The notes beneath the pieces are model-generated. The model was given only the letters and a program-made list of their open reading frames with translations. It did not search any database and was not told the origin of the DNA. The position numbers and the translations under genes were made by a program. Positions 14,619-25,148 of a stretch of DNA of 36,632 bases are shown in pieces (positions within the stretch are counted from its first letter, which is position 1; the number at the start of each line of letters is the position of its first letter). Source of the DNA: Ramlibacter sp. (GTDB lineage Bacteria; Pseudomonadota; Gammaproteobacteria; Burkholderiales; Burkholderiaceae_C); assembly GCA_036561125.1 (NCBI GenBank), contig DATBPW010000139.1:1-36632 (forward strand). The letters run 5' to 3'.

Positions 14619-15203
14619 ATGAAACGCCGCCACCTCCTCACGCTCGCCGCCGCACCGCTGCTGGTCGCGGCGTGCTCCGAATCGAAACCCAAGTTCAACG
14701 CGATCGACCTCACCGGGGCCGACTACGCGAAGGACTTCCACCTGCCCGACACCGACGGCAGGATGCGCAGCCTCGCCGACTTCAAGGGCAAGGTGGTCGC
14801 GCTGTTCTTCGGCTACACGCAGTGCCCCGACGTGTGCCCGACGACGATGACGGAACTCGCGCAAGCCAGGCAGAAGCTCGGCGCGGACGGCGACAAGCTG
14901 CAGGTGCTGTTCATCACCGTCGACCCCGAGCGCGATACGCCGAAGGTGCTCAAGGCCTACATGGGCAACTTCGACCCGAGTTTCATCGGGCTCGTGCCGA
15001 CGGCGGCGCAGCTCGAGCAGGTCGCGAAGGACTTCAAGGTCTATTACAAGAAGGTCGACGGCCCGACGCCCACGAGCTACACGATGGACCACTCGGCAGC
15101 GACCTACATCTACGACCCGGAAGGCCGGCTGCGCCTGTATGCGCGTTACGGCAACGGGCCGCAGGTGCTGGTCTCCGACATCGAAAAGCTGCTGCACGCG
15201 TAG
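14619..15203 (+). CDS. sco: SCO1/SenC-family copper chaperone lipoprotein
   Basis: Lipobox LVAAC, FFGYTQCPDVCPT, ITVDPERD, YTMDHS. Confidence 0.94.
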   Translation: MKRRHLLTLAAAPLLVAACSESKPKFNAIDLTGADYAKDFHLPDTDGRMRSLADFKGKVVALFFGYTQCPDVCPTTMTELAQARQKLGADGDKLQVLFITVDPERDTPKVLKAYMGNFDPSFIGLVPTAAQLEQVAKDFKVYYKKVDGPTPTSYTMDHSAATYIYDPEGRLRLYARYGNGPQVLVSDIEKLLHA

Positions 15204-19969: not shown

Positions 19970-20434
19970 CTAGCCGCGGATGCCGAGCTTGCCGTAGAGC
20001 TTGGCGAGGACGAAAAGCGGCCCGACCCACAGGTATTGGAGGTCTTCGAAGAACGATGGTTTCCTGCCCTCGATCCTGTGGCCGACGAACTGCGCGACCC
20101 ACGCAAGCACGAACACTAGGGCGGAGACCTGCAGCACGTACGAGCCGAGCGACTGGACGAGCGCGACGCCCAGCAGGGAAATGGCCGCCATCGACGCGAG
20201 GAACACCGGCGAGCCCAGCCGTGCGTAATACACCATGCTGGCGAGCAGGAAGGCGTACGCGACCAAGGGGTGCATCGCGTACATCAGGCCAACGAGGCTC
20301 ACCATGATCAGCGGGATCGCCACGCAATGGATCGCGCTGTTGCGCGGGTTGCGGTGGCTTTCGCCGTAATGCGCGAGCAGCTGGTCCACGCGCCGCGAGT
20401 CGGTGGGCGCCGGTCCGTCCGTGGTCGTGCTCAT
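19970..20434 (-). CDS. Mpo1-like / DUF962 membrane protein
   Basis: YGESHRNPRNSAIHCVAIP, AWVAQFVGHRIEGRKPSFFEDL; SD AAAGGAGG before ATG 20434. Confidence 0.88.
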   Translation of the reverse strand: MSTTTDGPAPTDSRRVDQLLAHYGESHRNPRNSAIHCVAIPLIMVSLVGLMYAMHPLVAYAFLLASMVYYARLGSPVFLASMAAISLLGVALVQSLGSYVLQVSALVFVLAWVAQFVGHRIEGRKPSFFEDLQYLWVGPLFVLAKLYGKLGIRG

Positions 20435-20483
20435 GCGAACCTCCTTTTGGAAGAATGGTGCCATTGTCGCAAAGGAATCCGCC

Positions 20484-20825
20484 ATGCCGGACGTCAATGG
20501 TCCTTTCAAAATCTCCGTCGTGACCACGACCGTCGGCTCCATGAAGGATGCCGATCGCCTGGCCCGCGCGATCATCGAGAAGGAGCTGGCCGCGTGCGTC
20601 CAAGTCGACGCAGTCGCGTCGTCCTTCTTCAAGTGGGAAGGAAAGTTGTGTGCCGAACCGGAAGTGAGGCTGACGATCAAGACCATTCCCATGCGGCTGG
20701 CCGGCCTCGAGGCGTTCTTCGAGGAAGCGCATCCCTACGAGCTGCCGCAGTTCGCCGTGACCGAAATGGGCACGTCGAAAGTCTACGGTTCGTGGGTGAG
20801 GGCGAACTGCGCGGGCGACTGCTAG
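20484..20825 (+). CDS. cutA: CutA divalent-cation tolerance (PII-like) protein
   Basis: LAACVQ, SFFKWEGK, E....IKT, HPYELP; SD AAAGGA upstream. Confidence 0.9.
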   Translation: MPDVNGPFKISVVTTTVGSMKDADRLARAIIEKELAACVQVDAVASSFFKWEGKLCAEPEVRLTIKTIPMRLAGLEAFFEEAHPYELPQFAVTEMGTSKVYGSWVRANCAGDC

Positions 20826-21892
20826 CGCACGACCACGCGCGCGCCGTCCGGCGCGGCGCGGCATTCCCCGATCACTGCGGCGCTCGCGAAACCATGGGCG
20901 CGGAAGATATCCATCACGCCGCCGACTGCGCCCGCGGCGCACGATACGAGCAGCCCCCCGCTCGTCTGCGGATCGGACAGCAAGGCCTGGTCCACCGCAG
21001 CGAAGCCGTCGGGCAGCACGATCGACTGGCCATAGCCCGCCCAGTTGCGGCCCGATGCGCCGGTCACGAAGCCATCGCCCGCGAGCGCACGGACGCCGGC
21101 GAGCACGGGCACCTTCGCCCAATCGATCGCCACTTCGAGGTTCGCGCCGCGCGCGAGCTCGAGCGCATGCCCCGCAAGGCCGAAGCCCGTCACGTCAGTG
21201 AGCGCATGCACGCCGTCCAGGGCTGCGAGCTCCGGCCCGGGCGTGTTGAGTTTCGTCGTGGTCTCGATCATTCGCCGGTACCCGTCCCCATCGAGCTTTT
21301 CCTTCTTGAGCGCGGCCGAGAGGATGCCGACGCCCAGCGGCTTGCCGAGGACGAGCACGTCACCCGCGCGCGCATCGGCGTTGCGCTTGACGCGCCGCGG
21401 GTGCACGAGACCGAGCGCGACGAGCCCATAGATCGGCTCGACCGAGTCGATCGTGTGGCCGCCGGCGATCGGAATGCCCGCCGCGCGGCACACGGATTCG
21501 CCGCCTTCGAGGATGCGCCCGATCGTCTGCGTGGAAAGCACGCTGATCGGCATGCCGACGAGCGCGAGCGCCATGATCGGCTTGCCGCCCATCGCGTACA
21601 CGTCCGAGATGGCGTTGGTCGCGGCGATGCGGCCGAAGTCGTACGCGTCGTCGACGATCGGCATGAAGAAGTCGGTGGTGGCGATCAGCGCCTGCTCGTC
21701 GTTGAGCTTGTACACGGCCGCGTCGTCGGCGGTCTCGATGCCGACAAGCAGTTCCGGCGGCATCGGCATGCGCGCGGTGCCCTTCAGGATCTCCGACAGC
21801 AAGCCGGGCGCGATCTTGCAGCCGCAACCGCCGCCGTGCGACAGCGACGTCAGGCGCGGCTCGGCGGCGAGCGGGTTCAGGGGGGCGTTCAT
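20822..21892 (-). CDS. selD: Selenide, water dikinase (selenophosphate synthetase; SenC-type)
   Basis: RLTSLSHGGGCGCKI, DDAAVY, TTDFFMPIVDD, NAISDVYAMGG, GGHTID, DVTGFGLAGH, DPQTSGGLL. Active-site residue is Cys (TGC), not Sec. Confidence 0.96.
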   Translation of the reverse strand: MNAPLNPLAAEPRLTSLSHGGGCGCKIAPGLLSEILKGTARMPMPPELLVGIETADDAAVYKLNDEQALIATTDFFMPIVDDAYDFGRIAATNAISDVYAMGGKPIMALALVGMPISVLSTQTIGRILEGGESVCRAAGIPIAGGHTIDSVEPIYGLVALGLVHPRRVKRNADARAGDVLVLGKPLGVGILSAALKKEKLDGDGYRRMIETTTKLNTPGPELAALDGVHALTDVTGFGLAGHALELARGANLEVAIDWAKVPVLAGVRALAGDGFVTGASGRNWAGYGQSIVLPDGFAAVDQALLSDPQTSGGLLVSCAAGAVGGVMDIFRAHGFASAAVIGECRAAPDGARVVVR

Positions 21893-22881
21893 GGACTTTC
21901 CTCGAGATGTCGGGCCAGGTCGAGCACGGCCCGGCGTTCGGTGTCGGGCGAGAAGAGCGGCGCGCGCAGATCGCATTGTGCGCGCAGCCGCGCCAGCAGG
22001 GACGTGGCAGGGTCATCGCTGCCCTGCGTGGCCCGGCAGACCTTGAGCAGGTGCGCCAGCGCCTTCGCGTCGCCGTGCGGGAAATAGCCTTCGTAGCCCG
22101 GGCCGAGCAGCCCGATGTTGCCGGAGATGCGCGATGCGAGCACCGGCGTGCCGCTGCAGACCGCTTCCATGATGGCGTGGGCGCCGCCTTCGATCGCGCT
22201 CGTGTGCACGAGCAGGTTCGCGCGCTGGATTTCGCGCAGTGTTTCCTCGTGCGGCAGCTCGCCAAGCCAGTGGTAGGACGGGCACTCGGCGGCGGTGCGG
22301 TGCGCGCGTTCAGCCCAGATTTCCTCGTCGGCGCGGCCGATGTGGTGCAGCTCGATGTCAGGGCGCTGGCGCAGCAGGCGCGCTGCTTCGAACAAGGTCT
22401 CGGGGCTTTTCACGTCGCGCAGGTGCCCGACCATCACCGCGCGCAGCCTGTCGTTGGGCTTCGGCGTTGCCTCGCGTGAAGCCACGGACTGGTAGATCAC
22501 GCGCGCCTTGTGCCGATGCACGGCCGGCAGCGCTTCGAGCCCGAGTTCCTGCAGCACGACGAGCTGGCCGGCGAAGTCCAGCGAGCGGCGTGCCGCCGGA
22601 TCGATGCCGATGTCGCGGTACAGGTCCGTGCCCGTCAGGACGAGCGCGAGTTTCCCAGGCGACCGTGCCTGCGCCCACGCGGCGATCGAATCGGCGGAGC
22701 GCCGCGCGTGCAAAGCGATCATGGACCGGTCGCGCTCCGACTGCGCGTCCGGCCAGCTCATCACCGTGCGCACGTCGAACGCCTCTGCGAGGAATGAAGA
22801 CCAGCGGTGCGCCGTCTGCCAGTTGCCGTTGTTGGCGGCAGCGAGGGCGGGGCTTACGATCACGACCGATGGACGCGGCAT
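21889..22881 (-). CDS. senB: GT4-type selenosugar synthase SenB-like glycosyltransferase
   Basis: SPALAAANNGNWQTAHRW, ALHARRS, LTGTDLYRD, VGHLRDVK, EGGAHAIMEA; 4-nt overlap with the selD start. Confidence 0.88.
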   Translation of the reverse strand: MPRPSVVIVSPALAAANNGNWQTAHRWSSFLAEAFDVRTVMSWPDAQSERDRSMIALHARRSADSIAAWAQARSPGKLALVLTGTDLYRDIGIDPAARRSLDFAGQLVVLQELGLEALPAVHRHKARVIYQSVASREATPKPNDRLRAVMVGHLRDVKSPETLFEAARLLRQRPDIELHHIGRADEEIWAERAHRTAAECPSYHWLGELPHEETLREIQRANLLVHTSAIEGGAHAIMEAVCSGTPVLASRISGNIGLLGPGYEGYFPHGDAKALAHLLKVCRATQGSDDPATSLLARLRAQCDLRAPLFSPDTERRAVLDLARHLEESP

Positions 22882-24044
22882 TCACGGTTTATAGCGCGGC
22901 GCACGCGTTGCGCACAGGCGGGCGCGCCCATGTGCGCGCCGCGCTCGAAGGTGCGCGCAAGCGCACGCTGCTCCTGGCCGATGCATACGCCGCGGCGCTG
23001 GCCGCGCAAGCCTTGCGCGTGCCCTACCGGTCGACGTTGAATCCGCCGCTGTGGGAATGGGGGCACGTCGCGTGGTTCCAGGAATGGTGGATCGCGCGCA
23101 ACCGCCAGCGCGCGCTGGGCGTCGCATGCGACCCGGACCACGAACGCGCGCCTTCGATCATCGCGAATGCGGACGCGATGTACGACTCCAGCCGGGTCGC
23201 GCATGCCTTGCGGTGGGAACTGCCGCTGCCGGACGAGCACGGCACCCGCGCGTACATGGCAGCGACGCTCGAGCAGACGCTCGCCGCGCTCGAGCGCATC
23301 GACGAGCCGACCGACGACTCGCTGTATTTCTTCCGCCTGGTCGCGCTGCACGAGGAAATGCACAGTGAAGCGGCGAGCTACATGGCACAGGCGCTGGGTA
23401 TCGACGTTCCCGCGGCCGCACTGCGCGCTGTTCCTGCGCTCGAGCGAGACCGCGGCGCGGTGCGCGTTCCGGCGCAGCACTTCACGGCAGGCTGGAGCGG
23501 CGCGGGCTTCGCTTTCGACAACGAACTGCAGCCGCCGGGCGTCGCGCTCGATGCATTCGATATCGATGCACAGCCGGTTTCATGGGAGCGTTTCATCGAG
23601 TTCGCGCAGGCGGGGGGCTACCGTGACCGCCGGTGGTGGGACGACGCAGGCTGGAGCTGGCTCGAGCGCAGCGGCATTCCCGATCACGAGCAGCGCGCCA
23701 TGCCGGGCACGGCCGCGACCCACCTGAGCGCATTCGAGGCGCAAGCCTGGTGCCGCTGGGCAGGCCGCCGCTTGCCGACCGAATTCGAATGGGAGTGCGC
23801 GGCGTTGGCGTCGCCGGAGTTTTCTTGGGGCCAGGCCTGGGAATGGACCTCCTCCCCGTTCGAGCCCTACCCGGGTTTCGCGCCGCATCCGTATCGCGAC
23901 TATTCGCAACCATGGTTCGGCACGCGGCGCGTGCTGCGCGGCGCTTGCCCTGCGACGTCCGCTTCGCTCGCCCACCCGCGCTATCGCAATTTCTTCGAGC
24001 CGCATCGCTGCGACACCTTCGCCGGCTTTCGCAGCTGTGCCTGA
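22869..24044 (+). CDS. senA: EgtB-family non-haem iron enzyme, selenoneine synthase SenA-like
   Basis: DinB-like N-domain (NPPLWEWGHVAWFQEWW; LHEEMHSE = HxxxHxE) plus FGE-sulfatase domain (FAFDNE, RLPTEFEWE, WEWT, YRDYSQPWF, YRNFF, FAGFRSC). Start taken at ATG 22869. Confidence 0.87.
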   Translation: MDAAFTVYSAAHALRTGGRAHVRAALEGARKRTLLLADAYAAALAAQALRVPYRSTLNPPLWEWGHVAWFQEWWIARNRQRALGVACDPDHERAPSIIANADAMYDSSRVAHALRWELPLPDEHGTRAYMAATLEQTLAALERIDEPTDDSLYFFRLVALHEEMHSEAASYMAQALGIDVPAAALRAVPALERDRGAVRVPAQHFTAGWSGAGFAFDNELQPPGVALDAFDIDAQPVSWERFIEFAQAGGYRDRRWWDDAGWSWLERSGIPDHEQRAMPGTAATHLSAFEAQAWCRWAGRRLPTEFEWECAALASPEFSWGQAWEWTSSPFEPYPGFAPHPYRDYSQPWFGTRRVLRGACPATSASLAHPRYRNFFEPHRCDTFAGFRSCA

Positions 24045-24050
24045 TGCGGC

Positions 24051-25148
24051 TCAGGAACCCAGCAGCGCCAGCGCGAATTCGCGCGCGTTGAAAGTCTCGA
24101 GGTCTTCCAGCTTCTCGCCGACGCCGATGAAATAGACCGGCACCGGCTTTTCCTGCGCGATCGCAGCCAGCACACCGCCCTTGGCGGTGCCGTCCAGTTT
24201 GGTCACGACGAGTCCCGTGAGGCCGAGCGCTGCGTCGAACGCCTTCACTTGCGCGAGCGCGTTCTGGCCGGTGTTGCCGTCGATGACGAGAAGCACTTCG
24301 TGCGGCGCGCTGGGTTCGGCCTTCTGCACCACGCGCTTGATCTTGCGCAGCTCCTCCATCAGGTGCAGTTGCGTCGGCAGGCGGCCCGCGGTGTCGACGA
24401 GCACGACGTCCTTGCCGCGCGCGCGGCCCGCGGTGACGGCGTCGAACGCGACGGCGGCGGGGTCGCCGCCTTGCTGGCTGACGATCTCGACCGTGTTGCG
24501 GTCGGCCCAGACCGCGAGCTGCTCGCGCGCGGCCGCGCGAAACGTGTCGGCTGCCGCCAGCAACACCGATTCGCCGCTGTCGGCCAGGTGTTTCGTGAGC
24601 TTGCCGATCGACGTGGTCTTGCCGGCGCCGTTCACGCCCGCGACCATGACCACGGTCGGCTCGTGCTCGCCGATGACAAGTTCCTTCTCGAGCGGCTTGA
24701 GCAACTGCGTCAGCGAATCGATGAGGATGTTCCGCGCCTGCACGGGGCGCGAGGCGCCGCTTTGCGCGACCCGGCGCTTGACTTCGGTGATCAGGTGCTG
24801 CGTCGCCTTCACGCCGGTGTCGGCCATCAGCAGCGCCGTTTCGAGCTCTTCATAGAACGCGTCGTCGATCTGCGCGCCGGCGAAGACTTCGGACAGTGTC
24901 GAGCCGGTCTTGCGCAAGCCTTGTGTCAGGCGCTCCATCCAGGTCTTGCGCTCGGGCGCGACCGGCGCGGCGACGGGGATTTCGATCGCCTGCACGACCG
25001 CAGTGCCGATCAATCCGCCCGAGGCCGGCGCAGGTGCGGGCGCCGGTGCGGGCGCGACGGCAGAGCTGTCCTCGGCCGCAGGGGCAGGCACGGCTGCCGG
25101 AAGGGGCGCAGGCGTGGCCGCGGGTTTTTTACGGAAGAAACTGAACAT
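24051..25148 (-). CDS. ftsY: Signal recognition particle receptor FtsY
   Basis: GVNGAGKTT, DTFRAAA, DTAGR, TKLDGTAKGG; Pro/Ala-rich N-terminal region. Confidence 0.97.
   Translation of the reverse strand: MFSFFRKKPAATPAPLPAAVPAPAAEDSSAVAPAPAPAPAPASGGLIGTAVVQAIEIPVAAPVAPERKTWMERLTQGLRKTGSTLSEVFAGAQIDDAFYEELETALLMADTGVKATQHLITEVKRRVAQSGASRPVQARNILIDSLTQLLKPLEKELVIGEHEPTVVMVAGVNGAGKTTSIGKLTKHLADSGESVLLAAADTFRAAAREQLAVWADRNTVEIVSQQGGDPAAVAFDAVTAGRARGKDVVLVDTAGRLPTQLHLMEELRKIKRVVQKAEPSAPHEVLLVIDGNTGQNALAQVKAFDAALGLTGLVVTKLDGTAKGGVLAAIAQEKPVPVYFIGVGEKLEDLETFNAREFALALLGS

Follow-up and report, generated by a model that had tools for sequence, protein, structure and literature searches.

An intact senABC cluster of a Ramlibacter genome and its probable role in selenoneine synthesis

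The window analysed here, meaning the whole stretch of 36,632 nucleotides (positions 1 to 36,632 of contig DATBPW010000139.1, assembly GCA_036561125.1), comes from Ramlibacter sp. and carries three adjoining genes, senA, senB and selD. These genes appear to be an intact senABC cluster for the probable synthesis of selenoneine, the selenium analogue of the antioxidant ergothioneine, and I put the probability of this reading at about 0.92. The senABC assignment had been made in a first-pass annotation of the same DNA, and it held on every sequence test that was run. The cluster is an ordinary, close and intact copy of a known bacterial pathway. It has little significance alone, since the pathway has already been described, reconstituted and crystallised; the reconstitution was achieved in vitro for Variovorax paradoxus, and more than 800 sen clusters were reported in 2022 (bioRxiv 2022.04.13.486033). 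A small new detail is the layout of the senA-senB junction, where the head-to-head 5′ ends overlap and carry conserved -10-like boxes.

Identity of the three sen genes

All three open reading frames (ORFs) are intact and full length, and they lie where the first-pass annotation had placed them (Table 1). The window proteins were compared with curated NCBIfam profile models and their cut-offs. The senA product passed the SenA model with 471.3 bits (cut-off 420) and fell below the cut-offs for EgtB (212 against 360) and OvoA (71.5 against 400). It was described earlier as an EgtB-like enzyme with iron ligands and an FGE-type domain, and indeed H66, H161-x3-H165-x-E167 and the FGE domain were all found. 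Its best matches in the PDB are the V. paradoxus SenA structures 8RYZ and 8K5I (E 9e-144), followed by OvsA (E 9e-44) and EgtB (E 3e-39).

The subfamilies of EgtB/SenA-type enzymes are told apart by a composite motif, which is xNEH--HRHxHYYN(F/Y)(F/Y)R in SenA (PMC11030361). The window protein has xNEH--HRHMHYYNFFR, an exact match that takes in the His triad, the catalytic Tyr363 and the change of EgtB Arg87 to His. It does not fit the motifs of OvsA (xNEH--HRHxHYMQAYR), EgtB-I (xSDH--RRHQHYYNWDR), EgtB-II (xSHHYYRRHQHxYNFFx), OvoA or EgtB-IV. The SenA residues named in PMC11237966, that is N63, E68, H71, R120, H167, H171, Y363, N395, F397 and R401 in V. paradoxus numbering (placed by eye on the structure-match alignment), are all kept. 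A quick IQ-TREE analysis of 32 proteins places the window protein inside a 99%-supported clade of 13 SenA rows of the genus, far from the six EgtB rows. A placement against SenA, EgtB and OvoA had been proposed as a check on the assignment, and model, motif and tree all put the protein with SenA and apart from EgtB.

The same check for the neighbouring glycosyltransferase gave SenB, with 421 bits against a TIGR04348 cut-off of 300. Its best PDB match is RsSenB (8K5U, E 5.5e-123), a different protein from Ramlibacter sp. that is the closest solved relative; SenB activity has been demonstrated for a Ramlibacter enzyme (PMC10891094). Ramlibacter and Variovorax SenB both match at about 1e-122. Ramlibacter is also the source of the named close homologues of another gene of this genome. 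N20, T23, H58, T83, D86, R155, K158, E231 and E239 are kept. SelD passed both PRK00943 (534 bits, cut-off 299) and TIGR00476 (425 bits, cut-off 125). The claim of a Cys-type selD coupled to a GT4 gene was borne out by its GGGCGCK motif and by the overlap of the senB stop with the selD start in ATGA at 21889-21892, with a GAGGA ribosome site just 5′ of it. The longest ORF would start at 21976; this start was rejected, and the real one is 21892.

The closest well-known counterpart is the sen cluster of V. paradoxus DSM 30034 (Kayrouz & Seyedsayamdost, bioRxiv 10.1101/2022.04.13.486033; structures 8K5I, 8RYZ, 8JJQ and 8FBX). The two share the three genes, the overlap of senB with selD, the composite motif of SenA, the catalytic residues of SenB and an egt locus elsewhere as the hercynine source. 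In contrast, the window SenA has 391 residues where that of V. paradoxus has 416, with a short deletion in the FGE domain, and the two SenB proteins differ at two positions discussed below.

Where the hercynine might come from was also assessed in the assembly, which is 3.38 Mb long in 537 contigs. The genome-wide profile search found no egtD over the cut-off on the contig of the window. On another contig (C39), an egtB gene stands immediately before egtD (399.7 bits, cut-off 290.9) in the locus L001 (G000:C39:2886-5110). The product of this egtB scores 532 bits, has the motif xSHH..RRHQHVYNFFA and fits the EgtB-II motif at the 14 mapped sites. With these two genes, ergothioneine is a likely product of the organism as well. 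The earlier suggestion that hercynine is made elsewhere fits this locus, which also agrees with the published view that the ergothioneine route provides the hercynine (bioRxiv 2022.04.13.486033).

By orthology with the characterised V. paradoxus and Ramlibacter enzymes, SelD would make selenophosphate from selenide and ATP. SenB would then couple it to a UDP-sugar, likely UDP-N-acetylglucosamine (UDP-GlcNAc), through a C-Se glycosidic bond, and its K158 would cleave the Se-P bond and release a 1-seleno-sugar. SenA, with Fe(II) on three His residues, O2 and Tyr342, would bond the selenium to C2 of the hercynine supplied by EgtD. The selenoxide may then eliminate spontaneously to selenoneine without an EgtE step, as proposed for Variovorax.

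Table 1. Features of the sen cluster and of the senA-senB junction in the window
Feature	Position	Strand	Evidence
senA, selenoneine synthase (non-heme Fe selenoxide synthase), 391 aa	22869..24044	+	NF041186, structure matches, composite motif
senB, selenosugar synthase (GT-B/GT4 fold), 330 aa	21889..22881	-	TIGR04348, PDB 8K5U match, kept residues
selD/senC, Cys-type selenophosphate synthetase, 356 aa	20822..21892	-	PRK00943, TIGR00476
TACGAT, putative senA -10 box within codons 8-9 of senB, 8 nt 5′ of the senA ATG	22855..22860	+	
TATAAA, putative senB-selD -10 box within codons 7-9 of senA, 6 nt 5′ of the senB ATG	22888..22893	-	

Competing explanations

Could the senA gene encode an ordinary ergothioneine sulfoxide synthase that lies next to selD incidentally? 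The protein shares its fold, its three-His iron triad and the hercynine acceptor with EgtB types I and II, and the common fold goes with a weak match to the EgtB model (212 bits). However, it fails the EgtB cut-off and passes that of SenA, its thiol-binding residues differ, with N, E and His where EgtB has S, D or H, and Arg, and the true EgtB-II of this genome is a separate gene on C39. This explanation is contradicted by motif and tree and is extremely improbable. It is scarcely more probable that the cluster makes ovoselenol (5-selenohistidine) or some other selenometabolite instead of selenoneine. The ovs clusters (OvsA/OvsM plus SenBC; PMC11030361) also use the SenBC cassette for the selenosugar, together with a related Fe enzyme; OvsA comes directly after SenA among the PDB matches, and the window is without egtD. 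Yet the motif of the window protein ends in YYNFFR where that of OvsA ends in YMQAYR, neither OvsM nor any methyltransferase was seen adjoining the cluster, and the genome has egtD, a gene missing from most ovs hosts (PMC11030361). I likewise give very little credit to the idea that the sen genes are genuine but silent or decaying, with only selD kept for selenouridine. In its favour, senB is found in just 16 of 24 genomes of the genus, one genome (G014) has only a 47-codon senA remnant beside senB and another (G007) has senB without a nearby senA. Against it, neither frame in the window is truncated, none of the catalytic residues checked has changed, and the two putative -10 boxes are preserved.

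Probable selenoneine synthesis by an intact senABC cluster is the preferred reading, and some points weigh against it. SenB differs from the V. paradoxus protein at R22Q and V236A, the latter a single change in the last position of the sugar-binding motif, EGGAHA against the published EGGAHV (PMC10891094); Q22 is also present in RsSenB, and position 236 makes a main-chain contact according to the published SenB paper. The tree behind the SenA placement is a quick version. A consensus scan of 20300-24300 found no full -35/-10 sigma-70 promoter (0 found, 0.2 expected), a scan which neither finds nor excludes promoters consisting of a -10 box only. Finally, the assembly is split into 537 contigs and 90.8% complete, and a second selD may be missing from it.

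Selenophosphate supply and the senA-senB junction

The first-pass annotation had called the cluster dedicated to selenium small molecules. It had also proposed a search of the genome for egtD, egtB and a second selD; the first two were found on C39 as described above, and no second selD over the cut-off was found in this 90.8% complete assembly, where the copy of the window is the sole one. It was correct that selA, selB, selC, selU and egtD are missing from the window, as genome-wide searches gave nothing over the cut-offs on its contig. A selU (mnmH) gene is present off the window, in two pieces on contigs C239 and C435 (L008 and L009). These were considered as two separate selU genes, which was rejected: the pieces overlap at the contig ends with 97% identity and resemble two strain versions of a single gene, which suggests a strain mixture in the assembly. 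Across the whole assembly, selA had 0 matches, selB gave a GTPase match below the cut-off only, no tRNASec was found over the gathering score and none was among 35 ARAGORN tRNAs; since the assembly is incomplete, these genes are not found rather than absent.

Because selU is encoded elsewhere and only one selD was found, SelD is most likely shared and also feeds the synthesis of tRNA selenouridine via SelU. Selenophosphate would then have two likely users here, SenB and SelU. The word dedicated does not stand, because there is one selD, selU is present and, in 7 loci of relatives, selD follows ftsY without senAB. The comparison of relatives shows that "SenC" of this genus is usually the single housekeeping SelD, so that deleting selD would affect selenoneine and selenouridine alike. 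The further claim that standard annotation hides the pathway was not upheld either, because NCBIfam has equivalog models named SenA and SenB, and the window proteins passed both.

Is the arrangement common among relatives? I compared 24 genomes of the same genus, which are kin and several of which are incomplete, so the counts are descriptive. Of 41 genomes sampled, 20 have a SenA over the cut-off. senB adjoins SenA in 16 of 18 other SenA loci over the cut-off. Within the genus, selU was matched in all 24 genomes (23 over the cut-off) and selA in 4. Of the 22 genomes with a selD match, G005 has two copies and the other 21 have a single one. Among 23 selD loci, senB is directly upstream in 14, ftsY is directly upstream without intervening senAB in 7, and the remaining 2 have no match to any neighbour tested. 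In G005, one selD lies at ftsY and the second beside senB; in G019, senAB and selD are on separate contigs. The simplest reading is that selD is a resident of an ftsY-selD-cutA-rpoH region and that senA-senB is a cassette gained or lost before it.

Two loci of the genus deserve mention. G007 (L068, C2:7000-16000; genome 81% complete) has senB-selD without senA in the 9 kb examined, and about 3.8 kb of other DNA separates senB from ftsY; the cluster may serve selenosugar synthesis only, or senA may have been lost from it. In G014 (L058, C29:30572-34501), the remnant upstream of senB seems to join the senA start to its extreme C-terminus, both -10-like boxes are kept, and a full senA lies on another contig.

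The divergent senA and senB genes overlap by 13 bp at their 5′ ends (22869-22881). On the senA strand, TACGAT-N8-ATG occurs in 15 of the 16 genus loci, and a SenA match follows it in 14 of these 15, the other being the remnant of G014. The box forces the Val9 codon of senB to be GTA, which is rare in the same senB genes (6 of 318 other Val codons). The sixteenth locus, that of G007, has lost the box, GTA and the ATG. On the senB strand, a script found TATAA(A/C) 6 nt before an ATG or GTG start in 14 of the 16 loci. In a fifteenth, judged by eye, GTG follows the box after 3 nt and ATG after 6 nt, and G007 has no box. A census of 2,148 long ORFs of the own genome counted a -10-like hexamer 54, 41 and 19 times at distances of 6, 7 and 8 nt upstream of ATG; the remaining spacings gave 1-9 cases when out of frame and 13-27 when in frame. 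The census is rough, with a hand-chosen pattern that includes both junction boxes, and lends weak support.

Because conserved -10-like boxes lie 6-8 nt before each start codon, two overlapping divergent promoters likely produce leaderless senA and senB-selD mRNAs. Burkholderia cenocepacia is reported to have leaderless mRNAs preceded immediately by a TA-rich box (PMC4603805). I consider it fairly probable that senA and senB form a self-contained bidirectional cassette, in which each promoter lies inside the first codons of the partner gene and the leaderless mRNAs overlap as antisense at their 5′ ends. The pair would sit before a housekeeping selD, and a single selenophosphate supply for selenoneine and tRNA selenouridine would now be transcribed from the senB promoter. 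If so, a conserved "VYS" near the N-terminus of SenA would reflect the promoter and not protein function. A search of openly accessible literature found nothing on leaderless mRNAs or promoter layout of sen genes, or on leaderless mRNAs in Ramlibacter or Comamonadaceae; subscription journals lie outside this scope, among them the 2022 study as published in Nature with its supplements, which may already show the layout. With the proposed overlapping promoters, the transcription of sen genes has an initial hypothesis that can be tested.

SenA paralogues and neighbouring genes

A SenA paralogue is encoded on another contig (L006:737-1948, minus strand, G000:C102). It lies outside the window and does not affect the verdict on the sen cluster. 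It scores 384 bits against the SenA model, under the cut-off, and nests within the SenA rows on a long branch in the quick tree. The best 120 of 3,127 homologues under E 1e-60 all have Arg in place of the third iron His and Trp in place of the catalytic Tyr, and 119 of them have Ala at F397. It may be a non-catalytic binder or a re-purposed enzyme. Its motif, xELH--HRHMRWHRFAR, resembles that of the listed and uncharacterised "Unknown F" (VVLH--PRHLRWGGFAR, 75 members, V. paradoxus; PMC11030361, Supplementary Table 4), and the idea of an unreported protein was rejected on this resemblance. No literature on paralogues of selenoneine synthase was found. Paralogues of this type also occur in genus genomes without senAB (G003, G008, G016 and G020), and a gene for a regulator with a PBP_like domain is nearby in 5 of 5 loci and TRAP transporter genes in 4 of 5. 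It is a conserved protein worth a separate look.

Genomes of the same family (L073-L101) have many more SenA-derived proteins with eroded motifs, such as xDQH--PRHLHWYAFHR, xETH--PRHRCGAQGAD and xNLH--HRHACFARFAQ. Several other proteins there (L076, L077, L084 and L089) have an intact SenA motif and no senB within about 1.5 kb.

In the window, the sen cluster is flanked by ftsY and two M16 peptidase genes on one side and by cutA, an Mpo1-like gene, rpoH and a gene for a GGDEF protein on the other. Its guanine-plus-cytosine content is about 0.65-0.70, the same as in the remainder of the window. The Mpo1-like gene (minus strand) and cutA (plus strand) are divergent and lie just downstream of selD at 19970-20825; the stop codons of cutA and selD overlap at 20822-20825. 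Neither belongs to the sen pathway, because both adjoin selD also in relatives without senAB. A gene at 14619-15203 (plus strand) in the cytochrome c oxidase operon encodes a copper chaperone of the SCO1/SenC family (PF02630), whose name is unrelated to the SenC of selenoneine synthesis and could mislead annotation.

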